Source of the DNA: an uncultured Candidatus Rokubacteria bacterium
GTDB taxonomy: Bacteria; Methylomirabilota; Methylomirabilia; Rokubacteriales; CSP1-6
DNA: 64,000 bases
Assembly: GCA_963762145.1 (NCBI GenBank)
Contig: CAVXJS010000014.1
Span: 1-64,000, forward strand
Reading direction: 5' to 3'
Both the position numbers and the translations under genes were made by a program. Each line of letters starts with the position of its first letter. The stretch's first letter is position 1. The notes beneath the pieces were generated by a model, which was not told where the DNA came from, made no database searches, and saw only the letters and a program-made list of their open reading frames with translations. Below are positions 10,602 through 51,682 of this stretch, piece by piece.

Positions 10602-11568
10602 GTGGTTACCCGACGAGCCTTCATCGGCACGCTTACTGGTGGCCTCCTCGCCGCGCCGCTCGCCGCCGAGGCGCAGCAGGCAGGGAAGGTGTACCGGATC
10701 GCTGTTCTCGGACTAACTCCCACGGACCCGTCTCTCAATGCGGCATTCAAACAGGGGCTGGGCCAGTTCGGATACACAGAGGGGAAGAACATCGTAATCG
10801 AATACCGAGACGCCGACGGACAACCTGAGCGACTTCCCGACTCGCGGCCCAGCTCAAGGTGGATGTCATTTTCGCCAGAGGGGCAGGCGCGCTGTCAGCT
10901 GCCAAGCAGACAAACAGCCGCATTCCAACCGTTGCGGTTGATCTTGAGACTGATCCAGTCGGTGATGGGATTCGTGCGGAACCTGGCGCGGCCGGGCGGC
11001 AATATCACGGGCGTGTTTCTGATCTGCCGGGGGTGAGTGGCAAGCGACTGCAGCTGCTCAAGGAGATCATCCCGGCACTCTCCCGCGTAGCCATCTCGGC
11101 GATCCGGCGCTCAACGCCCCGCAATTTCAGGCGAGCGAGAGCGCCGCACGCGCGCTGGGAATTCAACCTCAGATTCTGGAGGTGCGAGCAACGAAAGACC
11201 TTGACACGGCCTTGGAAGCGGCGAGTAAAGGACGGGCGAACGCCGTCCTCTTGCTCTCGTCGCCACTCGTCTTTTATCACCGAGCAGAGCTCGGTGCTCT
11301 CGTGATGAAAAGAACGGCTTCCAGCCGTTTCCATGTTCGTGGGATTCGCAGAAGCGGGTGGCCTCATGGCCTACGGACCAAGCCTACTCGAGGCGTTCCG
11401 CCGCGCGGCGCACCTTCGTGACGGATCCTCAAGGGCGCCAAGCCGGGGGAATTGCCCGTCGAGCGGCCGACGAAGTTCGAACTCGTCATCAACCTCAAGA
11501 CCGCCAAGGCCCTCGGCCTGACGATCCCGCCGTCGCTCCTGCAGCGGGCGGATCAGGTGATCGAGTGA
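10602..11568 (+). CDS. ABC-type substrate-binding protein (ABC_sub_bind-like) SBP1, frameshifted
   Basis: VVTRRAF...AEAQ leader, [10 protein letters not shown], tail [31 protein letters not shown]. Confidence 0.85.
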
Positions 11569-12556
11569 TGGACCGGCGGGCGTTCTCGGCACCTTGGCTG
11601 GCTGGTCTCCTCGCCGCGCCGCTCGCCGCCGAGGCGCAGCCGGCGGGAAGGTCGCCGCGCATCGGGTTCTCTGGGTCCGACCAGCCTTCGCTCGAAGCCA
11701 TCGGATCGGCGCCTTCCGGCAGGGACTGCGCGAACTCGGCTAGGTCGAGGGCCAGAACATCGTCGATCGAGTATCGCTGGCGCGAGGGCGCTCGAGCGGC
11801 TGCCCGACCTCGCCGCCGAGCTCGTCCGCCTGAAGGTCGATGTCATCGTCACGCTGGACCACGCCAGCGCTCGTCGCTGCAAAGAAGGCGACAACCACCA
11901 TCCCGATCGTCGTTGCGGCGGTGGCGACCCGGTAGGCAGCGGCCTGGTCGCGAGCCTGGCGCGGCCGGGCGGCAACGTCACCGGCTTGTCGCTCCGTCGA
12001 CCGACAGCTGGCTGCCAAGCGACTGGAGCTGCTCAGGAGGTCGTCCCCGGTCTCGCCGTTTGGCCGTTCTCTGGCAATACCGACACATCCGCCGCCGGCT
12101 GGACGCTGCTGAGCGAGCTTCAGGCGGCGGCCCGCACGCTTGGCGTCGAAGCTCCGTCGCTCGAGTCCGGCGCCCGGAGCGATCTCGACGCCGGCCTTCG
12201 CGGCGCATCAAGGAGCCGCGCGGAGGCACTCTATCGTCGTCCGCGACGACCCATCTGTCAACCACGCTCCGGATCGCATCGAGAATTTCGCGGGTGAGCA
12301 TCGTCTGCCGACGATGTATGACGCTCAGGGAGTTCGTCGAGGCCGGAGGCCTGCTGTCCTATGGAGCCGAACTTCCTGGACCTGTACCGGCGCGCCGGCG
12401 ATACGTCGACAGGATCCTCAAGGGCGCCAAGCCGGCCGACCTGCCCGTCGAGCAGCCACCAAGTTCGAGCTCGTGATCAACCTCAAGACCGCCAAGGCGC
12501 TCGGCCTGACGATCCCGCCGTCGCTGCTGCAGCGGGCGGACCAGGTGATCGAGTGA
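11568..12556 (+). CDS. SBP2, heavily frameshifted
   Basis: Same leader, core and tail motifs spread over several frames. Confidence 0.8.
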
Positions 12557-13535
12557 TGGACCGCCGCGCTTCCTCGGCACTGGTGGCTGGTGGCTCCTCG
12601 CCGCGCCGCTCGCCGCCGAGGCGCAGCCGGCGGGGAAGGTCGCCAGGATCGGATATCTGAAGGGCTAGGTTCTGTGGGTGCCTCTTGATGCCTTCAGACA
12701 GGTGCTGGGTGAGCACGGGTACATTGAGGGACGAAACATCGCGATTGAGAGCAGATCAGCAGAGGGAAGAGTTGAGCGACTTTCCCTTCTTGCCGCCGAA
12801 TTGGCCCGCCTCAGTGTCGATGTGTTCCTGGTGACCGTCAACAGAGTAGCCGTGGCCGTGCGGGAGGTAGCCCCGAAGACCCCTATCGTAATGACGCGTG
12901 CCGAGGAACCAGTTCGCCTTGGGCTCGTCAAGAGTCTTGCCAGGCCGGGCGGCAACATCACGGGGATCGCAATCGTGGCCGGCGCGGAGATCTATGGTAA
13001 GAACCTGGAGTTGTTGAAGGCGGTCCTTCCCGGCAGGCCGCGCATCGCTGCTCTCTTCAGAATCCACGTCTTCCGTCAACGCACTCTGGTTGAAGGCCAC
13101 GAACAGGCGGCTGGCAAGCTCGGGGTCAGGCTTGTGCCGACCGGAGTCCGCAGCCCGGAGGACTTCGAACACGCATTTGCGCTGATGAAGCAAGCGGAGG
13201 CGACAGGGTTTGTCGTCCTCGGTGAGCCGCTCTTCTTTGGCCCCAACAGCCGGCGACTCAACGATCTAGCACTGCGAAGGGGACTGGCTTCCATGTGGCC
13301 CCTTCGAGCTGGCGTAGACGCAGGTGGCCTGATGTCTTATGGCGTTCCTGTGCGCGACTCGTATCGCAGCGCGGCAGCCTACGTCGTTAAGATTCTTCTG
13401 GGTGTCCAGCCCGGTGATTTGCCGATGGAGCAGCCCACCAAGTTCGAGCTGGCCATCAACCTCAAGACCGCCAAGGCCCTCGGCCTGACGATCCCGCCGT
13501 CGCTCCTGCAGCGGGCGGACCAGGTGATCGAGTGA
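12556..13535 (+). CDS. SBP3, frameshifted in the leader
   Basis: [23 protein letters not shown], conserved tail. Confidence 0.87.
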
Positions 13536-14557
13536 TGGAGCGGCGGGCATTCATCGGGACTCTGACTGGCGGCCTCCTCGCCGCGCCGCTCGCGGCCGAG
13601 GCGCAGAGCGGCTACAAGTCCGAGTTCAAGATGTCCGTCGTCGTGAACGAGGACACTGCTTGGGGCCGGGCCGCCATCAGATTTGCTGACGCCCTGAGGA
13701 ATCGGACCGTGGGACGTATCCACGTTAAGCCCTACTTCAACGGGCGGCTCTTCGCGGATCAACAGACGACTGAGTTCCGGCTTTTGCAGCAAGGTGGAGC
13801 TGATTTTGCCATCGGCTCAACTATCAACTGGTCTCCGCAGGTGAAGGAACTAAACCTCTTCTCCATGCCGTTCATGTTCCCGAACTACGGCGCCCTTGAT
13901 GCGGTGCAAGCGGGGGATCCCGGTTCACGCTTGCTCAAGCTGATCGAGCACAAGGGCGTAGTGCCAATCGCTTGGGGGGAGAACGGCTTCCGCGAGCTGA
14001 ACTCAACGCGCTCAGTTCGCCGACCAGAAGATCTTCAAGGCTTGAGGGTCCGCGTGGTCGGTGTTCCGATCTGCATGGAGGTCTTCCGTGCGCTCGGTGC
14101 GAACCCAGTAAGTATGAATTGGGGCGAAGCTCTGACCGCCTTGCAGCAAGGCACAGTGGATGGGCACGAGAATCCGCTCGCTCTTATCATCCCGTACAGG
14201 CTTTGGGAAATACAGAGGCACGTCACGTTATGGCACTACGCAATCGACCCCTTAATCCTGGCTGTCAGTGGGAAGACGTGGATGAGCTTAACACCTGAGG
14301 ACCGGAACATAGTTCGGAAGGCCGGAGAGGAGATTATGGCCGTGCAGAAGCGGGAAGCACGGGAAGGACTGGATCGCGACATGACTCTGCCCACGACCCT
14401 CGAGAGGCTTTATGGGATGGAGGTGGTCCAGCTCTCGCCCGCAGAGCTTCAGGTGTTTCGTCAGAAGACCCGTCCGGTCTACAACAAGTGGGCTTCCGAG
14501 ATCGGAGTCGAATTGGTGCGCCGCGCGGAGACGATCGTCGGAGACTCCGGCAGGTGA
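13535..14557 (+). CDS. dctP: TRAP transporter solute receptor DctP carrying the array's SBP leader peptide
   Basis: WGENGFRE, PEDLQGLRVRV, ALQQGTVDGHENP. Confidence 0.9.
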   Translation: MERRAFIGTLTGGLLAAPLAAEAQSGYKSEFKMSVVVNEDTAWGRAAIRFADALRNRTVGRIHVKPYFNGRLFADQQTTEFRLLQQGGADFAIGSTINWSPQVKELNLFSMPFMFPNYGALDAVQAGDPGSRLLKLIEHKGVVPIAWGENGFRELNSTRSVRRPEDLQGLRVRVVGVPICMEVFRALGANPVSMNWGEALTALQQGTVDGHENPLALIIPYRLWEIQRHVTLWHYAIDPLILAVSGKTWMSLTPEDRNIVRKAGEEIMAVQKREAREGLDRDMTLPTTLERLYGMEVVQLSPAELQVFRQKTRPVYNKWASEIGVELVRRAETIVGDSGR

Positions 14558-14627
14558 TTCGAGACGACGACGCTGGCCTGAAGGTCCCGCCGTCGCTGCT
14601 GCAGCGGGCGGATCAGGTGATCGAGTG

Positions 14628-15611
14628 ATGGATCGGCGGGCGTTCCTTGGCAGCTTGGCAGGCGGCTTCCTCGCCGCGCCGCTCTCCGCCGAGGCGCAAC
14701 AGGCGGGAAAAGTGTGGCGAGTCGGCATCCTAGACGGCGGCTTACCCACGCCGGAACGTGAGGTGCTCTGGAATGTGTTCCGCGAAGCTTTACGGAACAC
14801 GGGGTATGTAGAGGGCAAGAACATCGCGTTCGAGTTCCGTTGGGGTTCCGGCCACGTCGCTAACTTGGGTGTGCTCGCTGGGGAACTCGTGCGCGCCAAC
14901 GTCGATCTCATCGCCACAGCCGGCACGCCGGCGGCACTCGCGGCGAAGCAGACTACCTCCAGCGTTCCGATAGTGCTCGTCATCGCCGGCGACCCGGTAC
15001 GGACTGGACTGGCGTCGACCCTTCGCCGTCCTGGGGGTAACGTCACCGGCCTTACAACGCTCTCTACGGAGCTGAGCGGAAAGCGGCTGGAGTTTCTGAG
15101 GGAACTTCTGCCGGCGGTTACGCAGCTCGGTGTGCTATGGGATAGCAACCCGGCGTTTGCGTTGGCCGTACAGGACACGGAAATCGCTGGCCGCACCATG
15201 AAGGTGAACGTGCGGACGGTGGCGGCACACAGCCGCGACGACATCGAGGCCTTCTTTGCCAACCTCAATCGCCTGAGACTCGACGCCCTTGAGGTGATGC
15301 CCGGTCAGCTATTCCTGCGCGAGCGACGACTCTTCGCCGGTCTGGCCGTAAGGCATCGCATACCGACAATCTACGCCCAGCGCGAATACGTTGAGGCCGG
15401 TGGCCTGATGTCCTATGGATCCAGCCTTTCGCAGCTGTTTCCGCGGGCGGCGGTCTATGTCGACAGGATCTTAAGGGGCGCCACACCGACCGATCTTCCC
15501 ATCGAACAACCCACCGCGTTCGAGCTGGTCGTCAACCTCAAGACCGCCAAGGCCCTCGGCCTGACGATCCCGCCGTCGCTCCTGCAGCGAGCCGACCAGG
15601 TGATCGAGTGA
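14628..15611 (+). CDS. SBP4
   Basis: Intact ORF with leader, core and tail motifs. Confidence 0.9.
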   Translation: MDRRAFLGSLAGGFLAAPLSAEAQQAGKVWRVGILDGGLPTPEREVLWNVFREALRNTGYVEGKNIAFEFRWGSGHVANLGVLAGELVRANVDLIATAGTPAALAAKQTTSSVPIVLVIAGDPVRTGLASTLRRPGGNVTGLTTLSTELSGKRLEFLRELLPAVTQLGVLWDSNPAFALAVQDTEIAGRTMKVNVRTVAAHSRDDIEAFFANLNRLRLDALEVMPGQLFLRERRLFAGLAVRHRIPTIYAQREYVEAGGLMSYGSSLSQLFPRAAVYVDRILRGATPTDLPIEQPTAFELVVNLKTAKALGLTIPPSLLQRADQVIE

Positions 15612-16579
15612 TGGACCGTCGAGCGTTCATCGGCACCTTGACGGGTGGCCTCCTCGCCGCGCCACTCGCCGCCGAGGCGCAGCCGGCGGGGAAGGTGTAC
15701 CGAGTCGGGATCATCGCCATCAACCCCCGGTCGGCGCCGTTCGTCCAGGTGTTCGAGCGGCGCCTCCGCGATCTAGGCTGGGCGGAAGGGAAGAACCTGG
15801 CGATCGTGTTCCGCTCGCCCCGCCGCCCGCAAGACGCCGCTGCTATGGCCGTCGATTTGGTTCGCCAGAACGTCGACGTCATTGTGGCGGGCGGCCCCGA
15901 GCCGAATCTGAAGGCGGCCACGGAGGCCACTCGCACGATCCCGATCGTCATGGTCGCGCTCAACTACGATCCGGTATCGAAGGGGTATGTCGCGAGCGTT
16001 CCCCGGCCTGGCGGGAACGTGACCGGCGTATGGTCCCTGTCGCAGGAGCAAGGGCCGAAGCAGCTTGAGCTGCTGACCGAGATGCTCCCGCAGGTCACCC
16101 GCATCGGGGTGCTGTGGGAGGCGTTCTCCCGGGATCAGCTCGCTCTGATCGATGCCGCGGCGCCACGACTGAGCGTACAGATAAAGAAGGTGGAGGTGCT
16201 CCCACCGTACGATTTCGAGCAGGCCTTCCTAACCCTCAAGCAGGAACGCGTCAGAGCTGTCCTGGCTGTAGGCTCCCCGATCTTCTTCCGTCAGCGCGCC
16301 ACGCTTGGGAAGATCGCTCTCGCTCACCGCCTGCCCACCGGCGGATCCCTGAGCTACATGGACGGTGGGTTTCTACTCGGGTTTGGGGTACCTACTGACA
16401 TGCACTACCAGCGGGCGGCCGAATACGTCGACAAGATCCTACGAGGCACCAAGCCCGCCGATCTACCTATCGAGCAGCCCAGCAAGTTCGAGCTGGTCAT
16501 CAACCTCAAGACCGCGAAAGCCCTCGGCCTCACGATTCCGCCGTCGCTCCTGCAGCGGGCGGATCAGGTGATCGAGTGA
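15611..16579 (+). CDS. SBP5
   Basis: Intact ORF with leader, core and tail motifs. Confidence 0.9.
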   Translation: MDRRAFIGTLTGGLLAAPLAAEAQPAGKVYRVGIIAINPRSAPFVQVFERRLRDLGWAEGKNLAIVFRSPRRPQDAAAMAVDLVRQNVDVIVAGGPEPNLKAATEATRTIPIVMVALNYDPVSKGYVASVPRPGGNVTGVWSLSQEQGPKQLELLTEMLPQVTRIGVLWEAFSRDQLALIDAAAPRLSVQIKKVEVLPPYDFEQAFLTLKQERVRAVLAVGSPIFFRQRATLGKIALAHRLPTGGSLSYMDGGFLLGFGVPTDMHYQRAAEYVDKILRGTKPADLPIEQPSKFELVINLKTAKALGLTIPPSLLQRADQVIE

Positions 16580-16743
16580 TGGATCGGCGGGCGTTCATCG
16601 GGGCCTTGGCGGGCGGCCTCCTCGCCGTGCCGCTTAGCGCCGAGACGCAAGAGGCGGCCAAGACCGCTCGGCAGCGACGTGACTCGCACTTTGCGCTCGG
16701 GCTCACGCCGCCCAACGGCAGTATGGTTAGACAATCCACGTAG
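16579..16743 (+). pseudogene. SBP leader-only stub preceding the methyltransferase
   Basis: MDRRAFIGALAGGLLAVPLSAETQEAAK then unrelated sequence and stop. Confidence 0.75.
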
Positions 16744-16760
16744 CTTATAGGAGGACTCCC

Positions 16761-17560
16761 ATGCCGGCGACGCTGCAGATCTCGGGAACCCCGGCGGAAA
16801 TCTATGAGCGGCACATGGTCCCCGCGATTTTCGCGCGCTGGGCCCCGGACCTGGTACAGGCGGCCGGTGTGCGGACCGGGGAACTGGCGCTCGACGTCGC
16901 GTGTGGTACAGGCGCCGTGACAAGGCTTTTGGCGGAACGCGTGGGACCAACGGGCAAGGTCACGGGCCTGGATCTCAACCCTGGTATGCTCGCGGTCGCC
17001 CGACTCGCTGCTCCAAGTCAGAGCATCGAATGGGTGGAAGGCAGCGTGGTCAAGATTCCCCTACCGGATGCGACCCTCGACGCTGTGGTCTGCCAGCAGG
17101 GGCTCCAATTCTTTCCTGACAAGGCAGCGGCGCTCTCAGAGATGCACCGGGTGCTCAAGCGCGGCGGCCGCCTTGCGTTGTCCTGCTGGCGCTCGGTCGA
17201 ACACACTCCGGGCTATCACGTGCTTGAGCAGGCCCTCGCCCGCCGGATCGGTCCCGAAAGGCAGCGCTCCCGCCGTTCAGTTTTGGAGAGGCAGGCGCGA
17301 TCCGAGCCCTCCTCGTAGGCGCTGGGTTCCGAGAGGTCAAGCTCTGGGCCGAGGCCAAGATGCTTCGATTCCGATCCGCCGAGCACTTGGTCAGGGCCGT
17401 GGTGGGTGGCGCACCAACCATGATGGGCGCGTTGACCGGGCAGGGAGAAGGCGGTCTCGACGCCATCATCGCCGAGGTGACTGAGGCAACCAAACAGTAC
17501 GTCGATGACGAAGGTTGGGCGACGCCCGCGGTGAGCCATATCGTGACGGCGATAGGATGA
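16761..17560 (+). CDS. Class I SAM-dependent methyltransferase (UbiE-like), one frameshift near 17257
   Basis: LDVACGTG, GLDLNPGML, CQQGLQFFPD; near-identical to the intact copy at 41781-42581. Confidence 0.9.
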
Positions 17561-17599
17561 CCCCGGACGTATCCTGGGTCCTCATCGGTCGGCCCGCGA

Positions 17600-17770
17600 G
17601 AGGCCTCATCGCGTACGGGCCGAACTTCGTTGCCGTCGCGCGCCGGAGCCCACCCAAACCCGGCGATCTCCAGTCCAGCAGCCCACGACATTCGAACTGG
17701 TCATCAACCTGAAGCCCTCGGCCTGACGGTCCCGCCGTCGCTCCTGCAGCGGGCGGAACAGGTCATCGAG
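17600..17770 (+). pseudogene. Eroded SBP C-terminal remnant
   Basis: GLIAYGPN...[26 protein letters not shown]. Confidence 0.75.
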
Positions 17771-17772
17771 CG

Positions 17773-18776
17773 ATGGATCGGCGGGCGTTCATTTCGGGGA
17801 TGACTCTCGGCCTCCTCGCCGCGCCACTCGCCGCCGAGGCGCAGCCGGCGGGGAAGGTGTATCGGATGGTGATCGTGTTCGCCGGGATGCCAGTTGCGGA
17901 GATGACCAAGGCGACGGATCCTGTTCAACGGGTGCTGTTCTTGGAGCTGCGCAGGCTCGGCTATGTGGAGGGCCAGAATCTCGTGGTTGAGCGCCGATCG
18001 GCCGCAGGGCAGCGGCGCGAGAACTACCCGGACGTTGCCCGCCAGATCGCGCGGCTCGCGCCGGACCTTATCTACGCCGGCTCGGGCCGCCTGGCGCAGG
18101 CGCTCCGCGCAGCAACGACCGCCATCCCGATCGTGACCACTACGTCTGATCCTGTGAGGTTAGGGCTGGCGGCGACTCTGGCGCGGCCGGGCGGCAACGT
18201 AACCGGCTTCAGCATCGACACGGGCGCCGAGATCCTCGGCAAGCGACTGGAACTTTTGACGTCGGTCCCACCGCTTCTCGCTTCGCGTTCCTGACCTCAC
18301 GGGCATCGTGGGAGGGGGTGTGGGGACGCCTCACGCGCGAGGCGGCCCAAAGTGCCGGTGTTAGGGTCTACAGTGCGGTAGTCGGCGACTCGTTCCAGGA
18401 GCCAGAATATCGGCGCGCCTTCGCCGCGATGGTGAAGGAACGCACGGAGGCTGTGATGGTGGGCGACCAAGCGGAATTCTTGGGACACGGGCCGCTCATC
18501 GTCGAGCTGGCTGCGGAGTCGCGACTCCCAGCCATCTATCCCCATCGCGGGTTTGCGGTGGCCGGCGGCCTCATGGCTTACGCGCCAGACCAGGATGATA
18601 GGACTCGCCGGGTGGCCGGATACATTGACCAAATCCTCAAGGGCGCCAATCCCGGTGACCTCCCCTTTCAGCAGCCGACGACGCTCGAGTTGGTCATCAA
18701 CCTCAAGACGGCCAAAGCGCTCGGCCTGAAGATCCCACCCTCGCTCCTGCAGCGGGCGGATCAGGTGATTGAGTAA
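17773..18776 (+). CDS. SBP6, frameshifted near 18260-18300
   Basis: Leader, [10 protein letters not shown], tail. Confidence 0.85.
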
Positions 18777-18785: not shown

Positions 18786-18950
18786 ATGCCAGAGCTACTC
18801 ACCGCTCTCGACGCCTTCCTGCAGGAGCACCGCCGCTGCGGCGAGCTGGACGGCGGTGTGGATGGTGAGCGCGACTGGATGGCGTGCGACTGCGGGGCTA
18901 CAGTGACACATCCTACCGGAGCTAGGCGCAGACCCGAAGGCGTGGGGTGA
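18786..18950 (+). CDS. Small Cys/His peptide (MPELLTALDAFLQEHRRCGELDGG...ACDCGA)
   Basis: Follows the last SBP tail; paralogous start at 41560 on the minus strand. Confidence 0.55.
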   Translation: MPELLTALDAFLQEHRRCGELDGGVDGERDWMACDCGATVTHPTGARRRPEGVG

Positions 18951-19593: not shown

Positions 19594-19758
19594 CGGTATC
19601 CCGTCTGAGACGGGTAAAAGTAACACCTTCCCGGCTCGAAGTGCCGGTAGTACCTTCCGTCACGCGGAGCGGCGCGTAACCCCGCGTTCTGGTTGGCTCG
19701 TAGCCGGGTCACGTGTGATGCAGGCCTTTGGCGCCAAGTTGCGGGCCAGGAGTGGTCG

Positions 19759-40737: not shown

Positions 40738-40739
40738 AC

Positions 40740-42581: not shown

Positions 42582-42760
42582 GGGAGTCCTCCTATAAGCT
42601 ACGTGGATTGTCTAACCATACTGTCGTTGGACGGCGTGAGCCCGAGCGCAAAGTGCGAGTCACGTCGCTGCCGAGCGGTCTTGGCCGCCTCTTGCGTCTC
42701 GGCGGAGCGGCACGGCGAGGAGGCCGCCCGCCAACGCGCCGAGGAAGGTCCGGCGACCGA

Positions 42761-43747
42761 TCACTCGATCACCCGATCCGCCCTCAACAGGACGGATGGC
42801 GGAATGGTCAGGCCGAGGGTCTTGGCCGTCTTGAGGTTGATCACCAGCTCGAACTTCGTGGACTGCTCGACGGGAAGCTCCGCCGGCCTGGTCCCCTTCA
42901 GGATCTTGTCCACCATCCGCGCCGCCTGCTTGCCGAGCTCGTACGTATTGGCGGCATAGGAGGCCAGCCCACCCCGCTCTACGAAGAACCCACTCGTGAA
43001 CATCGTCGGCATCACTCCTCGCGACGCGACCTCGAGGATGAACCCGGGAATGTTCGAGCTGAGGAACCGGAGGGAAAAGATCCCGTCCGCGTCACCCTTC
43101 CGGAGTCCGGTGATCGTTGCCCGCGCCTCCTCTTCGGTCCTGACCGGCCTCTCCACCAGCGTGAGACCGAGCCGCAGGGCGGCGTCGCGGTGGACGGCCA
43201 GTTGCGCCACGGCGGCCGAATTCGTAGCGTCGTAGGGCACCAGCACACGCTTCAACCCGGGAATCAGTTCCCGGAAGATCTCCATTCTCTTGGGCACGAG
43301 CTGGACGTCCAGATCGGCGACCCCGGTGATGTTGCCGCCCGGGCGGGCGAGACTCCGCACCAGCCCCAATCCGACCGGATCGCCCGAACCGATGACGACG
43401 ATGGGAATTTGATTCGTGGCGACCTGGGCCGCCTTCGCCGCCGGCCCGCTTTCCGTCGTCACGATGAGGTCCACCCGGTGCCGAACGAGGTCGCGAGCGG
43501 CCGCGGGCAGCTCGGCGACCTTGCCTTCGGTGAAGCGCACCCCGATCGTGAAATCCTTGTCCTCGCGGTACCCGAGCTCCTGAAGGCCGTCGCGCAGCCC
43601 GACAATGGACGGCGTCGGCCCCCAGGATTCCGTGAGCGCCCCGATCTTGAACAGGCGAGCCGGCTGAGCGAAGGCGTCGCGGCCGAGCAACCCTGCCCCC
43701 GAGACCAGGAACCCGACCACGAGCTGGCGACGACGCAGGTCCGTCAT
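42761..43747 (-). CDS. SBP-f (divergent leader MTDLRRRQL)
   Basis: [10 protein letters not shown], tail [31 protein letters not shown]. Confidence 0.88.
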   Translation of the reverse strand: MTDLRRRQLVVGFLVSGAGLLGRDAFAQPARLFKIGALTESWGPTPSIVGLRDGLQELGYREDKDFTIGVRFTEGKVAELPAAARDLVRHRVDLIVTTESGPAAKAAQVATNQIPIVVIGSGDPVGLGLVRSLARPGGNITGVADLDVQLVPKRMEIFRELIPGLKRVLVPYDATNSAAVAQLAVHRDAALRLGLTLVERPVRTEEEARATITGLRKGDADGIFSLRFLSSNIPGFILEVASRGVMPTMFTSGFFVERGGLASYAANTYELGKQAARMVDKILKGTRPAELPVEQSTKFELVINLKTAKTLGLTIPPSVLLRADRVIE

Positions 43748-43751
43748 GCGC

Positions 43752-44351
43752 TCAGGGGGCTGGCTCGGCCAGCAGGGCCTCGATGAGCGCACGTGCCGGA
43801 GGACTCCCCCATTGACGTGGTCCCACGCCGAAAGCGACGGCGCGCCCATCCCGACCGAGGACGAAGCTCGTCGGAAGTCCGATCACGCCATACAGACGAT
43901 TGTTCTTGCCCGCCTGATCGAGCACGAGCGGAAAGGTCAAGCGCAGCTCCGTGGCGTAGGTCGCGACTGCTTGCTTGTCCTCCCGGGCGTTGATCCCGAT
44001 GACGGCGAGTCCTCGCCACGCGAACTCTCGGTGGAGTCCCTCCAGTATGGGCATCTCCGGGCGACACTCGAGACACCAGCTCGCCCAGAAATTGACGATG
44101 ACCACCTTTCCACGCAGGTCGGTCAGCGAGAGCACTCGGGCGTCGAGTGTGTGGCCACTGAAGTGTGGAGGTTTCGTACCGGAGCGGTAGCCGACGAGAT
44201 CGAGACGCGTGAGCAGGGCCGTCACCGCCGGCTGCTCGGCACTCGCGGAACTCCACACGGCAACCACGAGCAGGGCGCTGGCGAGCAGTCGGCCCCGGCC
44301 GGCGAGCCGGCAGTTCAGCCCACCTCCCGGCTCGGCCGGCCCGGACGCCAT
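43752..44351 (-). CDS. TlpA/ResA-family thiol-disulfide oxidoreductase
   Basis: VNFWASWCLECRPEMP, YGVIGLPTS. Confidence 0.88.
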   Translation of the reverse strand: MASGPAEPGGGLNCRLAGRGRLLASALLVVAVWSSASAEQPAVTALLTRLDLVGYRSGTKPPHFSGHTLDARVLSLTDLRGKVVIVNFWASWCLECRPEMPILEGLHREFAWRGLAVIGINAREDKQAVATYATELRLTFPLVLDQAGKNNRLYGVIGLPTSFVLGRDGRAVAFGVGPRQWGSPPARALIEALLAEPAP

Positions 44352-44353
44352 CG

Positions 44354-44917
44354 TCAGCGTTTTCCGATGATCTCCCGGATATCCCGCAACAGGGTGTCGC
44401 TGTACACCACGGTGGTCGTCGGGTTGTCGATGATCCACTTCTTGCGCAGGATGCCCTGAGGATCGATGAGGAACAAGGCCCGGTTCGCGGTCATGGTCTT
44501 TTCATTGAGCACGCCGTAGCTGCGCATGACCTTCCGCTCGGGAAAGTCGCTGAGCAGCGGGAACGGCAGCTTCAGGGATTCGGCAAAGGTCTGCTGCGAG
44601 AAAGAAATGTTGGCACTGGCCCCGAGGTTCTGAATCCCCAGGTCTTCGAAACGCTTGTAGTCGGCCTTCCTGGCTGACAGGTTCGCCGCTCAGGTTGGCG
44701 AGAAGTCGGCGCCATAGAACTCGAGGAGGACCCACTTCTTGCCCCGAAAATCCGTGAGGGAGACATCGGCTCCCATGGTACCGGGCAACGTGAAGTCGGG
44801 TGCGGGCTGGCCCACCTCCACGGCCACGGCCGGCCCGGGACCGATGACGATCGACGCAATCGCGAGGGTCGCACCCACCAGGATCCAGCCAAACGTGCCC
44901 CGGCCCAGGACCATCAT
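44354..44917 (-). CDS. Exported AhpC/TSA (peroxiredoxin-like) putative selenoprotein with in-frame UGA at 44690-44692
   Basis: APDFTLP...FYGADFSPT-(UGA)-AANL...FPLLSD...RALFLIDPQG in one frame; hairpin after the UGA. Confidence 0.8.
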
Positions 44918-45299
44918 GTGCGTCTCCTTCAGAAGGATTTGGACGTTCACGGCGCGTTGTTGTCGAATGCTGCCGGAGGGAAGTGATTCTCGTCAGCCGG
45001 TCGCCCGTCGATCACACCGGCTCCGGATCGGACCGCGTTGCTACCGGATTGCGCTGGCCGGCACCACGCTTGACTTGCCGGAATCCTACCACAGCTTGAT
45101 AGAGGACTGCTTGCGCCGAAGTGTGCCCGGGCGGTGCCATGGTCGAGGGGAGCAAGCGCGCGTCGTGCGTCCGCTGGGACACGTCGAACGTGCCGGCATG
45201 AACCAAGAGTTTCTTCGTGACGCGCCGGCACACGGGGCGCTCGCTGACTACGGGCCTGGGCGGCGCGTGCTAAGTCGTTGCAAGCGGGTGAGAAACCCA

Positions 45300-45346
45300 T
45301 GGTGGGCTGGGACGGGATTGGACCGCCGACACCAGGATTCTCAGAC
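45300..45346 (-). repeat. Degenerate 3' half of a tRNA (Phe-like), relic att site
   Basis: CTGAGAATCCTGGTGTCGGCGGTCCAATCCCGTCCCAGCCCACCA; tandem TTGTGCC repeats at 45402-45419. Confidence 0.65.
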
Positions 45347-45430
45347 CTAGGCCTCAGTTCGTGTAAGTATGCGTAACTGCTTACGACAGTTGCCCGAGTT
45401 AGGCACAACTTGGGCACAAACTCTGGGCCA

Positions 45431-46408
45431 CTACTCGATCACCTGATCCGCCCGCTGCAGGAGCGACGGCGGGATCGTCAGCCCGAGCGCCCTGGCAGTC
45501 TTGAGATTGATCACAAACTCGAACTTGGTTGGCTGCTCTACGGGAAGGTCGGTCGGCTTCGCTCCCTTGAGGATCTTGTCGACGAAATCGGCGGTGCGCC
45601 GGTACAGATCCAGGAAGCTCGGTCCATAGGACAGCAGCCCTCCCGCTTCGACGAACTCCCGAACGTTATACATCGTCGGCAGCCGCACACCCAACGCCAA
45701 GGTGTTCATGCTGATCCGGTGAGTGGTTACGAGTGGGTCGTTGCAGACATAAAGTGCCTCCGCGCGGCCCTTGAGCGCCTCGAAGGCGGGCGCGATATCC
45801 TCCGGGCGCCGGATTTCTGATGCGACAACTTCGAGGCCAAGCGTGCGGGCCGTTGCCTGAACCTCGCGCATCTCCACCACGGCGGCGGGAGTGTCGCTAT
45901 TGGCCATGATCGCCAAACGGCGCAGACCGGGGACGACCTCGCGCACCAGTCCGAGTCGCTTGGCAGCTAGGTCGGTCGCCTGGAGCGACAGGCCGGTGAC
46001 GTTGCCGCCCGGTCGCGCCAGACTCGCGACCAGGCCGGTGCCGACCGGGTCCCCCACCGCCGCGAACACGATCGGGATGACCGATGTCGCTTGCTTTGCC
46101 GCGACGACTTGTCGGGTTCCCCCCGTGACAATGACATCCACCTTCAGGCGGACGAGCTCGGCCGCGATCTCGGCCAGGCGCTCGACGCGTCCTTCCCCCC
46201 AGCGATACTCGATCGCAACATTGCGACCCTCGATCCAGCTGAGTTCGCGCAGTCGCTCCAAAAAGGCGCCGACCCGGGGGCTCTCGAGCGAAGGCGTGGT
46301 AGGACCCAAGAACCCGATGGTTGGTCGCTTCGCCTGCTGGGCGCGCGCAACGAGCGGCGCGGCGAGGAGGCCACCAGTTAAGGTGCTAAGGAAGCTGCGC
46401 CGGTCCAC
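45431..46408 (-). CDS. SBP-e
   Basis: Intact ORF with leader, core and tail. Confidence 0.9.
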   Translation of the reverse strand: MDRRSFLSTLTGGLLAAPLVARAQQAKRPTIGFLGPTTPSLESPRVGAFLERLRELSWIEGRNVAIEYRWGEGRVERLAEIAAELVRLKVDVIVTGGTRQVVAAKQATSVIPIVFAAVGDPVGTGLVASLARPGGNVTGLSLQATDLAAKRLGLVREVVPGLRRLAIMANSDTPAAVVEMREVQATARTLGLEVVASEIRRPEDIAPAFEALKGRAEALYVCNDPLVTTHRISMNTLALGVRLPTMYNVREFVEAGGLLSYGPSFLDLYRRTADFVDKILKGAKPTDLPVEQPTKFEFVINLKTARALGLTIPPSLLQRADQVIE

Positions 46409-47400
46409 TACTCGATCACCTGATCCGCCCGCTGCAGGAGCGGCGGCGGGATCGTCAGGCCGAGAGCCTTGGCGGTCTTGAGGTTGATGACCAACTGGAC
46501 GTTTGTCGGACGGTGGATCGGGAGCTCGGAGGGCTTGGCGCCCTTGAAGATGCGATCGACATAGCCGGCCGCGTGCCGGTGGAGATCGGGTTCGTTGGAG
46601 TCGTACGCCATTAGCCCATTGGCGTCGGTCACCATCAGGGCCCACGGGTAGATCGCCGGAAGCTTGTGGCGGGCGGCCAGCTCGGTCAGTCGCGCGCGGT
46701 TAACCACGAAGATGCTCTCGCCGGTGACGACGAGACCATTCGCGCCCTCCTTGAGGCCAGCCTCGAGGGCGGCGGGAAGATCGTCGCCGGCGCGGATATC
46801 GCGGATCAGCAACGCCACCCCCAGCGACGGCGCCGCCGCCTCCAGGACTTTAACCTGGAGTGGAGCGATCGGATCGGCAAGGTTCGAAAGCACGAGAACG
46901 CGCGAGAGTTTCGGCACCGTCTCCTTCAGCAGCTCCAGGCGCTTGCCGGCGAGGTCCGAGGTCATCATGGTCGCGCCGGTGATGTTGCCCGCGGGGCGGG
47001 CGAGGCTTGAGATGAGCCCCGTGCCCACGGGGTCTCCCAGGGACAGCATGACGATAGGCACCGTCTGCGTCGCCTTCTTCGCGGCAAATCCTCCGGGTGT
47101 AGTGGTCACCGCGATCACATCCGCCTTGCGGCGCAGGCACTCCTGAGCCAGTTCCGCAAAACGTTCGTGCTGGCCGCCGGCGGACAGGTAGTCGATGGTT
47201 ACGGTCCGGCCGTTCACGTAGCCCAGCTCGGATAGGCGTTGGAAGAAGGCTTCCCATCTCGGCGAGCGCGTCTCGAACGTCCCCGGATCGAAGATGAGAA
47301 AGCAGAGTCGGGGGAGCTTCTTGGCTGGCTGCGCCTCCGCGTCGAGCGGCGCGGCGAGGAGGCCGCCAGCGAGGGTGCCGATGAACGCCCGCCGGTTCAT
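46408..47400 (-). CDS. SBP-d
   Basis: Intact ORF with leader, core and tail. Confidence 0.9.
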   Translation of the reverse strand: MNRRAFIGTLAGGLLAAPLDAEAQPAKKLPRLCFLIFDPGTFETRSPRWEAFFQRLSELGYVNGRTVTIDYLSAGGQHERFAELAQECLRRKADVIAVTTTPGGFAAKKATQTVPIVMLSLGDPVGTGLISSLARPAGNITGATMMTSDLAGKRLELLKETVPKLSRVLVLSNLADPIAPLQVKVLEAAAPSLGVALLIRDIRAGDDLPAALEAGLKEGANGLVVTGESIFVVNRARLTELAARHKLPAIYPWALMVTDANGLMAYDSNEPDLHRHAAGYVDRIFKGAKPSELPIHRPTNVQLVINLKTAKALGLTIPPPLLQRADQVIE

Positions 47401-47740
47401 CACTCGATCACCTGGTCCGCCCGCTGCAGGAGCGACGGCGGGATCGTCAGGCCGAGGGCCTTCGCAGTCTTGAGGTTGATGACCAGCTCGAACTTGGTCG
47501 GTTGCTCGACCGAAAGGTCACCGGGCTTCGGGCCCTTCAAGATCTTGTCCACGTAAGCGGCGGCACGTCTCCACAGATCTGGGAGGTTTGGACCGTACGA
47601 CATGAGGCCTCCAGCCTCGACGTAGACCCGAGCCGGATATATGCGGGCAGCCGGCTCCCGGCCACCGCGTCGACGAGGCGCGCACGGTGCGTCACGAAGA
47701 GTGGGTTATCGGCGGGTAGCACACCCTCGATACGTTCGCT
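47400..47740 (-). pseudogene. SBP C-terminal third only
   Basis: [12 protein letters not shown]...GLMSYGPN...conserved tail; no N-terminus. Confidence 0.8.
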
Positions 47741-47766
47741 TGCCTGAAAGTGTTCATGCCAGAGTG

Positions 47767-48279
47767 CTACCGCTCAGCGCGTGCCCTCAAGAGCTCCGTC
47801 AGGGTGAAGACAAAGTCCCTCTGGGCCTCCGGCTTGTGGCATTCGAAGCAGCCCTTGATGTTCGCCTTCGGGTCGCGGCTGCCGTCACCGAGGAAGCGCG
47901 CATATTCCCACTCGCCATTCCGAAGCTCTTCGGGATACTCAGCCCCCCAACCCGGCCGCTTCTCCATCACTACAACTCGGTCGAGCCGCCCGCGCACAAG
48001 GCGTCCGTTCGGGTCCTTCACCAGCTCGCCCTTCTCATCCACGAGGGCCTTGAACGTTGGCAGACTGAGGATGGTGCCATAGGGTAGCGGCTGACCAGGC
48101 TGCAACACCTTGAAGGCTTCAGGATTGATGTAGGCCTCTCGTAGCTCCTTGAGATCGGGCTGGTCGAGCACCGTGTACAGCACATGGTTCTGATAGAGCG
48201 GAAAGGCGACTTTCTCTTGGCCGGCCAGGGCAGGTGTGGTCAGGATCAAGAATAGCGTGACGAGGGCTCGAAGGACCAT
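47767..48279 (-). CDS. Cytochrome P460-family c-type cytochrome
   Basis: Signal peptide, VVMEK...GEWEYARF, C-terminal CFECH...DFVF. Confidence 0.78.
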   Translation of the reverse strand: MVLRALVTLFLILTTPALAGQEKVAFPLYQNHVLYTVLDQPDLKELREAYINPEAFKVLQPGQPLPYGTILSLPTFKALVDEKGELVKDPNGRLVRGRLDRVVVMEKRPGWGAEYPEELRNGEWEYARFLGDGSRDPKANIKGCFECHKPEAQRDFVFTLTELLRARAER

Positions 48280-48627
48280 GGTATCTCCTTGGAGCGGTCA
48301 GGATGGGGCGGGCGTCACTATCTCAAAGGGCAAGCTCGCGGGCAAGGCAGAAGGAGCCAACGCGCCAACGGGGCTTTCCCGTGCTCGTCAACGGATCATG
48401 GGTCGCCGCCACCAGTGCAGCCACCAGCCACAAAGCCACGTCCCGCCCGGTGGCACTCCCGCGCCCGCTCCGCGTCTCTCTCCTCCCATGCCTGGCGGAT
48501 GGCCTCCCTGCTGGGCCTGTCACATCGAGCAGCCTGGGAGCGCGCCGACCAAGAGGATTCCACCCAGAGTGTCTGGAAGGATCTCCCTCAACGCTCAAGC
48601 TCCCAGTGGGCGCAATCGAGTGTGGCC

Positions 48628-48732
48628 CTACTCGATCACCGAGCGATCCTGGCCCGCCTGCTGCGCCTCGGCGGCGAGCGGCGCGGCGAGGAGGCCCCCA
48701 GCCAAGGCACCGATGAACGCCCGCCGATCCAT
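48628..48732 (-). pseudogene. Empty SBP unit: leader fused directly to terminal VIE*
   Basis: [34 protein letters not shown]. Confidence 0.8.
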
Positions 48733-49703
48733 CACTCGATCACCTGATCCGCCCGCTGCAGGAGCGACGGCGGGATTGTCAGGCCGAGGGCCTTGGCCGT
48801 CTTGAGGTTGATGACTAGTTCGAACTTCGTCGGCTGCTCGATGGGAAGGTCGGCGGGCTTGGCGCCCTTGAGAATCTTGTCCACGTAGGTCGCGGCGCGC
48901 CGGAACATCTCTGGATAGCTGGCCCCATAAACCAAGAGGCCGCCGGCATCAGCAAACCCCCTGAGCGTAAACACGGCCGGCAGGCGGCTCTTTGATGCGA
49001 ACTCCACGATTCGTATCCTGTGGGAATAGAAGAAGATGTCCCCTTGGACGATGAGGGCGTCGGGGCGCTTCTTCTCCACCGCGGCGAATGCGGTGTCGAA
49101 CTCGGTTGGACTTTTCACTCCCACGAGGTCCAGGCGCACGCCCAAACGCGTCGCCGCAGCCTTCGCCTCTCTGACGAGACCGTCATGCAGCGGATTGGCC
49201 GGATTCCACAGTACGGCCACCTGCGAAAGCTGCTTGGGAACGAGTTCCCTCAGCAGCTCGAGCCGCTTTGCCTCAAGGCCGGGATTGTGAGCGGACAACC
49301 CGGTGATGTTCCCGCCGGGCCGCGCCAGGCTCGCGACGAGCTTGGTTCCAACGGGATCTCCGCTCAGCATGACGATGGGGACTGTCTTGGTCACGTTTTT
49401 CGCGGCCAAGGTTGAAGGCGTACCCCAAGTAACAATAACGTCAGTGCCGACTCTGGCGAGGTCGGCTGCGAGCCGAGGAAGCCCCTCGTCGCTCCCTTCT
49501 CCCCATCTGTACTCGAGCAGGATCGTCTGTCCTTCGACATAACCGAGATCGCGTAATCCTTGCCGGAAGTCCTCCCAGAGTGGTGAATTCTGCGCAACGA
49601 TGCCGACTCGGGGGATCCTCTTTATCGGCTGTGCGTCGGCTGCTCGCGGCCCGGCCAGCGCCCCGGCCAGCGAGGTCAGCAGGAAGCGGCGGCGGCTTAT
49701 CAT
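48732..49703 (-). CDS. SBP-c
   Basis: Intact ORF with leader, core and tail. Confidence 0.9.
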   Translation of the reverse strand: MISRRRFLLTSLAGALAGPRAADAQPIKRIPRVGIVAQNSPLWEDFRQGLRDLGYVEGQTILLEYRWGEGSDEGLPRLAADLARVGTDVIVTWGTPSTLAAKNVTKTVPIVMLSGDPVGTKLVASLARPGGNITGLSAHNPGLEAKRLELLRELVPKQLSQVAVLWNPANPLHDGLVREAKAAATRLGVRLDLVGVKSPTEFDTAFAAVEKKRPDALIVQGDIFFYSHRIRIVEFASKSRLPAVFTLRGFADAGGLLVYGASYPEMFRRAATYVDKILKGAKPADLPIEQPTKFELVINLKTAKALGLTIPPSLLQRADQVIE

Positions 49704-50696
49704 TCGATCACCTGATCCGCCCGCTGCAGGAGCGACGGCGGGATCGTGAGGCCGAGGGCCTTGGCGGTCTTGAGGTTGATCACCAGCTCGAACTTGGTGG
49801 GCTGCTCGATCGGTAGATCGGCGGGTTTGGCGCCCTTGAGGATCTTATCCACGTAGGTGGCGGCGCGGCGGAACAAATCAGGAAGGTCCGGCCCATAGGA
49901 CATGAGGCCTCCGTCCTCGGCCCAACCTCGGAACGAGTACACCGTAGGCAGCCGGTTCTTGGTCGCCAGGTCCACGAGGCGTCGTCGGTGAATGTCGAAC
50001 ATCGGCGTCACGGCGATGTACACGGCGCCAGCCTGAACTCTCGCCATGTCCGCGAAGGCCCGATCGAAGTCCTCCGGACTGCGCGCCTCCACGAAATGCA
50101 GCCGTACCCCGAGCGCCCGCGCCGTGACCTCTGCTGCTTTGACTCTGTCCTTCCTGGCGCCCTCCGGCATGGCATCTGGCTTCAACAGAAAGGCAACCGT
50201 ACTCAGCCCAGGAACCGCCTGCTTCAAGAGTTCTAGCGACTTGCCGACGAGCTCCCAGGTGACGATGGACAAGCCCGTGACGTTGCCACCCGGTCGCGCA
50301 AGACTGGAGACAAGTCTCTCTTGCACGGGATCGCCCGAAGCGGTGAACACGATCGGCAGAGTCGTCGTGGCCTGCTTCGCGGCCAGGGCGGCGAGGGTGC
50401 CGCCGGCGGCGACGATCACATCGAGCTTGAGCGCAACCAGCTCGGTCGCAAGAGCGGGGAACCGGTCGGTTTTTCCCCCCGGCATCCCGGTATTCGATCA
50501 GGAGGTTGCGGCCTTCGATGTAGCCTAGCTTGCGCAATCCTTCGATGAAGGCATTGCGGTTGCGGGGATCGGCGGCCGCCAGGTTGAGCGACAGGTAACC
50601 GATGCGAGCGTTCCTGTCCGCGTGCTGCGCCTCGACAGCGAGCGGCGCGGCGAGGAGGCCACACGCGGCAGCCGCGATGAAGGCTCGGCGGTCCAC
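49700..50696 (-). CDS. SBP-b, frameshift at a homopolymer near 50475
   Basis: Two overlapping ORFs supply the leader/N-terminus and the core/tail. Confidence 0.87.
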
Positions 50697-51682
50697 TACT
50701 CAATCACCTGATCCGCCCGCTGGAGGAGCGACGGCGGGATCGTCAGGACGAGGGCTTTGGCGGTCTTGAGGTTGATGACCAGCTCGAACTTGGTCGGCTG
50801 CTCGACAGGCAGGTCGACGGGTTTCGCGCCTTTCAGTATTTTGCCGACATGAAAGGCCCCCCGGCGGGCCATTTCGGCGTAGTCGGGCCCGTAGGTGAGA
50901 AGAGCGCCGGGTGGAATCCAAATCCGGTTCAATCCCATGATTGGCAGCCGATGCGTCGCGGCATATTCCACGATGCGTGCGCGATACGGGTACACGGCGA
51001 TGTGCACATGCAGCGCGTCGGGGCGCTCGCGTGACATCGCCACCAGGGCCGGCTCGAGATCCGCTGGACCGTGGATCTCCACCGAGACCAGCGCCATTCC
51101 CGCGGTCTTGGCAATGGCCTCCATGTCCTTCCACCCCGCTGCTGACGCCGGATTCTCCGGGTTCCATAGAACGGCGAGGCGAGACAACCTGGGAAGGGCC
51201 TCACGCATGATGTGCAGCGCCTTCGCTTGCAGGTCAGGATACTGAGCGGCTATTCCGGTGACGTTCCCGCCCGGCCGAACCAGGCTCGCGACGAGACCGT
51301 CGCGGACCGGATCGCTGAGCCCGATGAAGACGATCGGAATCGTGCTGGTCCGTTCCTTGGCGGTACGAGCTACTAACGTACTGGATGTCACGATGATATC
51401 TACCTTCATCTGCAGCAGATCGGTCACGAAGTTGGACGCCCGCTCATTCTTCCCCTCTAGGAATCGCCCCTCAATGACGAGATTTCTATCCGTGACGTAG
51501 CCCTGCTCACGGAGGCCTTGGAGAAAAGCCGACCAGTATCGAGAGTCTTCCGGATTCGTAGGGGACACGGTCCCGATGTATCCGATGTGTGGGATCTTCG
51601 TCGCTTGCTGCGCCGCCGCGCCGAGCGGCGCGGCGAGGACGCCGCCCGTCAAAGTGCTAATGAAGTCTCGTCGGGTCACCAT
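50696..51682 (-). CDS. SBP-a (first in the array)
   Basis: MVTRRDF leader, core and tail. Confidence 0.9.
   Translation of the reverse strand: MVTRRDFISTLTGGVLAAPLGAAAQQATKIPHIGYIGTVSPTNPEDSRYWSAFLQGLREQGYVTDRNLVIEGRFLEGKNERASNFVTDLLQMKVDIIVTSSTLVARTAKERTSTIPIVFIGLSDPVRDGLVASLVRPGGNVTGIAAQYPDLQAKALHIMREALPRLSRLAVLWNPENPASAAGWKDMEAIAKTAGMALVSVEIHGPADLEPALVAMSRERPDALHVHIAVYPYRARIVEYAATHRLPIMGLNRIWIPPGALLTYGPDYAEMARRGAFHVGKILKGAKPVDLPVEQPTKFELVINLKTAKALVLTIPPSLLQRADQVIE

Follow-up and report, generated by a model that had tools for sequence, protein, structure and literature searches.

How are arrays of orphan solute-binding protein (SBP) genes built? Expansions of such genes are common in soil bacteria, and the construction of their arrays is poorly understood. 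The question is raised by a stretch of DNA from an uncultured Candidatus Rokubacteria bacterium, the first 64 kb of contig C14 (CAVXJS010000014.1; this whole stretch is called the window below) in a bin, G000, that comprises 6.26 Mb in 25 contigs at ~70% GC and is 88% complete with 5.4% contamination. Two SBP gene arrays lie in it, at 10602-18776 on the plus strand (array 1) and at 39227-51682 on the minus strand (array 2), where an earlier note on the sequence had placed them. That note took the DNA at the gene junctions for the recombination unit of an integron analogue. We find that the arrays sit in two related islands, at a tRNA-Ser and a tRNA-Lys gene, and we judge, with a probability of roughly 0.58, that their rows of orphan SBP genes have been reshaped by general homologous recombination acting on conserved gene ends, and not by an integron analogue.

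The SBPs belong to Pfam family PF04392 (ABC_sub_bind), with 124.9 bits against a cut-off of 25.9 over profile positions 20-293 of 293, and their relatives in the PDB are 3lkv, 3lft, and 6hni (E = 8e-27 to 7e-16); in the accessible text of PMC10443332, the known ligands of the family are aromatic amino acids. At the junction between consecutive genes, the 31-residue tail of one gene, a stop/start overlap (GAGTGATG or TAGTG), and the leader of the next are present as they had been described. All genes of the family share one ~27-codon leader and one ~31-codon tail and so carry portable homology on both sides. The number and uniformity of the junctions needed correction: rather than 18 tails (8 + 10) we count 17 clear ones (8 + 9) and three vestigial ones inside leader-tail mini-ORFs (ORF, open reading frame), and in place of a near-identical ~170-bp junction we find a mean pairwise identity of 0.826 over 96 nt (maximum 0.979) for 48 tails genome-wide and of 0.583 for 18 leaders, with BLASTN repeats of about 250-350 bp at 76-86% identity. 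The motif extends beyond the two arrays, to 45-48 tails genome-wide, singletons included.

Export by the twin-arginine translocation (Tat) pathway calls for a twin-arginine motif, a hydrophobic core, and an AxA cleavage site. Read by eye from the sequence, the family leader carries an RRxF.. twin-arginine motif and a 10-residue stretch before Q, making it a putative Tat leader. That it might be a general Tat leader of many protein families is ruled out, since 26 of the 32 leader-motif hits in the genome precede SBP-like sequence (frame-broken copies included); two others lead the DctP copies described below, three are stubs, and one is a loose, unrelated match. The loci from other genomes gave 20 leader hits, including one on a DctP gene.

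Each array is the cargo of a ~17-kb integrative island of low GC content bounded by direct repeats of a tRNA gene, which is newly recognised here. The GC content of the islands is 0.63-0.66 (about 64%) and that of the DNA outside them 0.70-0.74 (about 72%); in both, an integrase lies beside the tRNA gene and a segment of that gene is repeated at both ends. The features of the islands other than the arrays are the following.

7232-7279, plus strand: left att repeat of island 1 (48 nt), which copies the 5' half of tRNA-Ser(cga) and repeats 24149-24196 exactly
8260-10716, plus strand: GAF histidine kinase HK1 (Pfam: three GAF domains, HisKA, HATPase_c)
19693-20202 and 21975-22619, plus strand: two response-regulator receiver genes of island 1 (PF00072)
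23399-24084, plus strand: tyrosine integrase of island 1, in two overlapping frames (PF00589, 76.1 bits, match 23635-24015)
24149-24243, plus strand: tRNA-Ser(cga) with the right att repeat of island 1 (24149-24196)
38574-38653, plus strand: tRNA-Lys(ctt) with the 43-nt att repeat of island 2 (38611-38653)
38779-39226, minus strand: integrase remnant of island 2 (PF00589 fragments, 38779-39193), its N-terminal ~190 codons gone, joined in frame to a tail stub at 39227
51687-54647, minus strand: GAF histidine kinase HK2 (Pfam), which stops 4 nt before the first SBP start
55159-55467, minus strand: HTH_17 (excisionase-like) gene of island 2 (PF12728, 47 bits)
56059-56101, plus strand: far att repeat of island 2, an exact 43-nt copy of the 3' half of tRNA-Lys(ctt)

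The islands share one layout in opposite orientations, i.e. att repeat, HTH gene, GAF histidine kinase, SBP array, small ORF beginning MPELL, integrase, and tRNA gene; in island 1 a remnant of a related HTH gene lies at 7678-7770. The two kinases are cytoplasmic and 71% identical at the nucleotide level. The last ~20 codons of HK1 are in another frame, so that the listed ORF continues into the SBP leader; the true C-terminus (GSTFTFTLPLN and a stop) ends about 6 nt ahead of the first SBP start. The gap of only 4-6 nt between kinase end and first SBP start in both islands (10540-10602; 51682-51690) suggests that kinase and array form a single operon.

Island 1 is absent from a close relative, G026, whose contig C207 crosses the tRNA-Ser site without a break and has 1,145 nt in place of the 16,544 nt of G000, which include HK1 and array 1; housekeeping DNA between the islands is about 90% identical in the two genomes. 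Presence/absence variation is demonstrated for island 1 only, the relatives' contigs stopping at or just past the tRNA-Lys/integrase region of island 2. There, the integrase beside tRNA-Lys in G021 has an open frame of at least 368 aa, and the homology of G000 to it ends at 39227. The tyrosine integrase by a tRNA gene, partial-tRNA direct repeats at both ends, deviating GC content, and absence from a close relative are all as in known tRNA-integrated islands, which these differ from in their cargo, a histidine kinase and an SBP array. No conjugation or phage genes were found among the ORFs scanned, a scan that covered part of them. We also observed that the filler at the empty island 1 site of G026 (L113, 1487-1674) contains a stretch 73% identical to the spacer at 48376-48567 upstream of the island 2 P460 gene.

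Mapping of the units by tblastn with 22 intact family members gave the following arrangement for the arrays and their immediate surroundings.

10602-13535, plus strand: SBP units 1-3 of array 1 (10602-11568, 11568-12556, 12556-13535), all frame-broken (ORFs; tblastn fragments over alignment columns 0-351, two frames each; G5 run at the frame switch of unit 1)
13532-14557, plus strand: DctP (SBP of TRAP type; PF03480, 223.6 bits) fused in frame to the family leader, the leader being followed by SGYK
14558-14625, plus strand: tail-only stub after DctP (alignment; tblastn)
14628-16579, plus strand: two intact SBP genes (14628-15611, 15608-16579) with stop/start overlap (ORFs, Pfam)
16579-16743, plus strand: mini-ORF of leader and decayed tail, an SBP unit without interior (MDRRAFIGALAGGLLAVPLSAETQEAAKTA..ALGLTPP.. 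and a stop)
16761-17770, plus strand: methyltransferase with a 1-nt A4/A3 indel at 17257 (Pfam on the island 2 copy), then a C-terminal SBP fragment with decayed tail at 17576-17770 (tblastn columns 282-351)
17773-18776, plus strand: SBP unit 8, the last of array 1, frame-broken at a G5/G4 run
18786-18950, plus strand: small ORF MPELLTALDAFLQEHRRCGELDGG.. after the end of array 1, with no Pfam family
39227-40371, minus strand: second DctP unit, a tail stub (39227-39294) and DctP with the N-terminal part of a DctP-type leader, 98-99% identical to 13572-14625
41489-41560, minus strand: start of the MPELL-like small ORF, the end of array 2 proper
41571-42760, minus strand: second methyltransferase unit, with tail fragment (41571-41765), intact methyltransferase (41781-42581), and leader/decayed-tail stub
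42761-43747, minus strand: intact SBP gene with a different leader (MTDLRRRQLVV..)
43752-44438, minus strand: AhpC/TSA-redoxin gene without flanking stubs (Pfam)
45431-46408 and 46408-47403, minus strand: two intact SBP genes
47400-48732, minus strand: P460 unit, with C-terminal SBP fragment and tail (47403-47749; tblastn columns 230-351), cytochrome P460 (47767-48279; Pfam), and leader/tail-end mini-ORF (48628-48732)
48732-51682, minus strand: SBP genes at 48732-49703 (intact), 49700-50696 (broken at a G6A5 run), and 50696-51682 (intact)

The twelve full-length SBP genes that had been reported correspond to twelve gene-length units, of which seven are intact and five are frame-broken, one of the latter (12556-13535) with an in-frame TAG. 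In all three broken units inspected the frame switches at a G5, G6, or A5 run, and the methyltransferase of array 1 has its A4/A3 indel (sites 11030, 17257, 18315, and 50460); PF02653 genes elsewhere in the genome are also split, many into 3-4 pieces, so that some of the frame breaks may be assembly indels, possibly systematic. The non-SBP genes inside the arrays, i.e. DctP, a class I methyltransferase, a cytochrome P460, and an AhpC/TSA redoxin, had been recognised correctly, as judged by Pfam. Concerning the stubs said to flank them, the tail stub behind DctP stands; what had been called leader-only stubs, ahead of the methyltransferase and P460 genes, are in fact leader-plus-tail mini-ORFs, and the redoxin gene is unflanked.

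The SBP interiors are as divergent as had been thought, with 36.5% amino-acid identity within the window. For six of the seven intact genes the nearest paralogue by mature domain lies outside the gene's own array, at 42-51% identity, which rules out recent local tandem duplication as the origin of the arrays; the members are old paralogues. They are also orphans: no permease match and no listed ATPase match lies in either array, the window holding none of the 81 genomic PF02653 matches and none of the 149 PF00005 matches listed (150 of 258 candidates scored). The genome as a whole contains 77 PF04392 matches, an orphan SBP expansion, with a few canonical operons elsewhere (e.g. C21:515951-518568).

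Several footprints of recombination lie in the junction. The DctP unit at 13572-14625 matches 39227-40280 at 99%, and the methyltransferase unit at 16638-17770 matches 41571-42704 at 99% (96% over all of 16410-17770), whereas elsewhere the two islands match at about 70-80%. In both shared units, which are 1.1-1.4 kb long and differ by 15-20 substitutions and indels, near-identity sets in within the core of the leader (about 13573-13575; about 16606) and runs to the final codon of the tail. Downstream of the leader, all 15 substitutions between the DctP copies fall in 13594-14036, and the 589 nt that follow (14037-14625) are identical; it is as if the 3' half and the tail stub had undergone a second, more recent conversion. 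Island 1 has one unit more than island 2 (17773-18776), between the methyltransferase unit and the MPELL ORF.

The DctP genes differ at their 5' ends. In island 2 the N-terminal part of the leader is of DctP type, like that of the 86%-identical orthologue in G021; in island 1 it is that of an SBP leader, 92% identical to the leader of the SBP at the same position in G004. A double crossover in leader core and tail, with DctP replacing an SBP interior, would give the gene seen in island 1. The DctP orthologue in G026 has no tail stub behind it. Loss of the interior is seen in the leader-tail mini-ORFs at 16579-16743 and 48628-48732; the three leader stubs all stop at alignment columns 32-35 (31-35 for leader breakpoints), two running into a tail remnant and the third being fused in frame to DctP.

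Comparison with related genomes, which the earlier note had recommended, shows that array content indeed differs at the junction. The gene behind SBP 12557-13535 and its orthologues is not the same in the three congeners: G000 has DctP there, G004 a further SBP, and G003 an amidohydrolase-like gene whose leader is of the family type. Homology breaks off at 13596-13605, inside the leader. This SBP (12557-13605) is 92% identical at the nucleotide level to G004 and 89% to G003, as against 79-84% to G000 for the housekeeping DNA of both, and this higher identity hints at transfer of a single unit between species. The amidohydrolase-like gene of G003 (IVDTHVHP..; L003, C638, 339-1373 on the minus strand), in whose leader the twin arginine is LR, overlaps the preceding SBP stop and has neither a tail stub nor a homologue in G000. 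All 21 genomes searched in the order (G000 included) matched a query of array 1 with its kinase. For array 2, in a genus-wide search of 21 genomes with G000 among them, only DctP pieces (84%) and one 294-nt stretch (90%) reach at least 84% identity outside G000's own copies, and the best gene-length SBP match is at 75%; with close orthologues so scarce, array 2 is not comparable unit by unit.

Breakpoints had been expected to fall on the junction. The ends of recent copies do so, in the leader and at the last tail codon, but the crossovers as a whole are spread and share no one core site: on the 5' side they are scattered over leader codons ~10-31 (about 13573-13575, 13596, 13605, about 16606, and leader columns 31-35), and on the 3' side the insertions end at tail alignment columns 230, 282, and ~333, so that the points cover about 20 codons of the leader and about 100 of the tail. 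The homology is sufficient for such exchanges: exact runs of at least 25 nt are common to 38% of the 231 tail pairs, to 8% of the leader pairs, and to 0.4% of the interior pairs.

The gene ends are conserved at silent sites. We codon-aligned 22 intact genes (231 pairs) and compared the fraction of identical codons at columns with the same amino acid with that expected from the codon usage of the family. The fraction is 0.713 against an expected 0.474 in the tail (the last 31 codons) and 0.590 against 0.398 in the leader; it is 0.415 against 0.411 in the interior and 0.485 against 0.462 in the 29 codons preceding the tail, and the values are unchanged for gene pairs on different contigs. The predicted difference in synonymous identity between junction and interior is therefore borne out, with ratios of 1.5-1.6 and 1.0-1.1. 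Stronger codon bias at conserved residues, as in selection for translational accuracy, is ruled out by 41 interior columns with a protein conservation of 85% or more, whose ratio is 1.07 compared with 1.60 for 27 tail columns. Which codon is preferred depends on the position, and it often differs from the family's major one (TCG 17/19, CGG 17/22, GAT 15/22, GTG 20/22).

The conservation reaches well beyond this genome. Between G000 and 23 genes from other records titled Rokubacteria or Methylomirabilota the ratios are 1.56 for the tail, 1.48 for the leader, and 1.08 for the interior; the corresponding values are 1.19, 1.26, and 1.08 for 18 alphaproteobacterial genes and 1.24, 1.23, and 1.06 for 15 betaproteobacterial genes. 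The comparison loci were chosen by degenerate peptide patterns, so that the choice has no bias toward particular codons. Since nucleotide conservation is found family-wide, i.e. on other contigs, in tails without a leader behind them, and in other genomes, the junction is not peculiar to the two arrays.

These observations can be joined in one mechanism. The array genes, tightly packed and probably co-translated, would encode orphan proteins predicted to be exported by Tat. RecA-type recombination and gene conversion between the shared ends could delete interiors, add or remove units, swap mature domains, and copy units from one array to another; a foreign gene would enter when one of its ends crosses over in a leader or tail and the other is joined illegitimately. 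The enzyme would presumably be the host's general recombination system. Nucleotide conservation may be kept up by conversion or exchange among copies, and between genomes by way of the islands, with extra selection for translational coupling probably acting on the last ~10 codons.

Several points weigh against this mechanism. The evidence comes from assembled contigs, and since gene pairs are not independent, the codon ratios carry no valid P value. The tail excess is 1.56 within G000, 1.56 between G000 and the genes of other records, and 1.57 among other records, an equality that is not expected if the copies simply evolved in concert inside each genome, since the within-genome value should then be the higher one. 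When tails are compared in pairs, their identities scatter in a single broad peak about a consensus; no two tails are identical and there is no neighbour effect, a pattern more suggestive of selection for one nucleotide sequence than of recent conversion between pairs. The excess also persists where no leader follows the tail (1.53 for 30 tails; 1.48 for 18 intact genes). Finally, the join of the tail stub at 39227 to mid-integrase sequence is illegitimate, with at most 3 nt in common, and yet it falls directly behind the last codon of the tail. The star-like identities and the equal excess within and between genomes agree better with nucleotide-level selection, or with cross-genome exchange, than with simple concerted evolution inside one genome.

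A function of the junction in RNA or translation, i.e. a Shine-Dalgarno sequence with a coupling structure or the target of a regulator such as a small RNA, with recombination as a by-product, would suit the star-like identities and equal excess, which are as expected of purifying selection, and we regard it as rather unlikely. The last ten tail codons contain a Shine-Dalgarno-like word, AGGTGAT, 5-8 nt before the overlapping ATG of the consensus, and constraint is strongest in tails that have a leader behind them (ratio 1.71, n = 18), above all in these codons, whose ratio is 1.83 with a leader behind (n = 18) and 1.31 without (18 intact genes). The first 21 tail codons, however, show an excess with or without a gene behind (1.65 and 1.56); since only the last ten relax, translational coupling explains part of the constraint and not its bulk. 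As to folding, against synonymous recodings the tails have a mean z of -1.49 as compared with -0.31 for 88 interior windows, the sole structure in the junction being a 9-bp tail hairpin (z about -1.5), but 48 tails that are near-copies of one sequence amount to a single weak observation, and the 191-nt junction as a whole has no special fold against dinucleotide shuffles (z = -0.61). A promoter or terminator in each junction was rejected, as no such site recurs in the junctions and the 1 and 6 hits are at shuffle level. In G015, which belongs to another family of the order, no excess is seen in the last 14 codons (0.98).

The integron analogue, in which a site-specific recombinase not yet recognised would add, remove, and rearrange units at the stop/start overlap with no intergenic attC, has in its favour that the two recent copies between the islands stop precisely at the last tail codon, that one of them is joined there to the integrase with hardly any shared sequence, that the units stand in one orientation with no promoter-like sites of their own, and that array content varies among congeners. 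We consider it very unlikely. The window's matches among the 12 genomic PF00589 matches lie by tRNA genes at the far island ends (4.8 kb past array 1) and belong with the tRNA att repeats, and a histidine kinase heads each array, in a test from which the IntI-specific extra domain was left aside; breakpoints are spread at both ends of the units, no attC-like structure is found, dispersed single genes bear the same junction DNA, and the tail/integrase join, being one event, cannot carry a site-specific model. What survives of the junction as recombination unit is thus the junction-bounded copies, the leader-tail fusions, and the variable content; dedicated machinery and a fixed crossover do not. 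It is highly improbable that these are ordinary tandem paralogues whose ends are kept for the protein (Tat signal, last strand and helix), with stubs left by random decay: the tail does lie within the PF04392 profile, to its last position, and recurs in many phyla, and divergent tandem SBP arrays are known for the TTT family (PMC5994714, accessible text), but the codon test with its conserved-column control contradicts this view, as do leader stubs with common end columns and recent copies bounded by the junction. An assembly artefact, in which metagenome repeats gave chimeric arrays, duplicated units, and frameshifts, strikes us as extremely doubtful. The fragmentation and contamination of the bin, the frame breaks at homopolymers, the PF02653 genes in pieces, and a maximum share of 0.52 of sampled words in any public run speak for it; against it, junction repeats are merely about 83% identical, the near-identical units differ by the 15-20 changes given above, the islands are embedded in 72% GC host DNA collinear with relatives, and 15 of 80 loci from other assemblies hold arrays of this kind. 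A bolder possibility, which we hold to be distinctly unlikely, is that the junction is a selected, phylum-wide boundary of coding homology cassettes, its nucleotide sequence kept constant because it allows binding-protein modules, and now and then foreign genes, to pass within and between Rokubacteria genomes, with tRNA islands as vehicles of a shared cassette pool that has neither attC nor dedicated integrase, or else that an undiscovered recombinase or RNA regulator acts on the junction.

How do the arrays compare with systems already described? Like integrons, they are same-orientation rows of unrelated genes without promoter-like sites, their content varies, and a tyrosine recombinase is encoded in the same element; unlike integrons, they have no integrase or attI at the head, no attC hairpin, and no fixed crossover, and the boundary repeat is protein-coding and part of each gene. 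Because stop and start overlap, there is no intergenic DNA for an attC. Parallels are also offered by the orphan Rhs/CdiA-CT modules (PMC3967940, PMC6336857), which are exchanged by homologous recombination. In these systems, a conserved coding stretch beside a variable domain likewise provides homology for swapping modules stored in a row, but it is conserved on one side only and serves C-terminal toxin/immunity pairs, whereas here both ends are conserved and whole mature domains are exchanged. The nearest analogue, the TTT/Bug SBP expansion of Rhodoplanes sp. Z2-YC6860, includes arrays of up to nine genes whose members are <50% identical and have their closest relatives outside the array (PMC5994714, accessible text); it resembles the present one in its many SBP genes, few or no cognate membrane components nearby, and nearest paralogues mostly outside the gene's own array, and differs in the family, which is TctC and not PF04392. 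The accessible text of that paper makes no mention of nucleotide conservation at gene ends, stop/start overlap, chimeric leaders, foreign genes, or islands, and the words "recombination" and "twin-arginine" occur in it 0 times. A literature search, supplementary files lying outside it, found no description of PF04392 arrays or of conserved coding junctions.

The tail pattern was found in at least 590 stretches of a collection with one genome per species. Among 80 loci kept, 15 have at least three same-strand tails 950-1150 nt apart, and the records of these 15 are titled Methylomirabilota/Rokubacteria, Alpha-, Beta-, and Deltaproteobacteria, Binatia, Udaeobacter, and Pyrinomonadaceae. The arrangement of a kinase and three SBP genes also occurs in a different family of the same order (L009). 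Family members with full tails were seen on contigs titled Nitrosocosmicus (an archaeon) and Enterobacteriaceae (L107, L098) and are probably binning errors. Twenty metagenome runs belonging to 8 studies (soil, rhizosphere, or unspecified) contain parts of array 1, with shares of 0.11-0.52 of the sampled words, and have no bearing on habitat or structure.

Some further observations concern the surroundings of the arrays. An ORF of the form MPELLxALDAFLxEHRRCGEL.. without a Pfam family lies directly behind the last array tail at four of five tblastn loci, like a conserved array terminus; its relatives behind arrays are at 41560 (minus strand), C22:110360, and C11:311509, and the fifth match is at C9:80657. 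A look-alike was noticed by eye behind the array end at C9:658144. Proline- and glycine-rich ORFs without a Pfam family occupy 40740-41505 (minus strand), between the DctP unit and the end of array 2. We infer the roles of the SBPs, of the kinase link, and of the MPELL ORF from position only. Twelve tRNA genes lie in the window, in which tRNAs and the signal recognition particle (SRP) RNA were the only Rfam families found; among the tRNA genes are two tRNA-His(gtg)/tRNA-Lys(ctt) pairs inverted to each other, at 716-916 (minus strand) and 38352-38649 (plus strand), whose sequences differ, so that they are separate genes and not a recent duplication.

In this expansion, then, silent sites at both ends of every gene are conserved phylum-wide, and these ends delimit deletions, replaced domains, captured foreign genes, and units copied from one mobile island to the other. 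If this holds true in strain-resolved data, it would be a simple way of shuffling exported proteins without a dedicated recombinase, and it would provide a clear case of nucleotide-level constraint in coding sequence beyond protein function.

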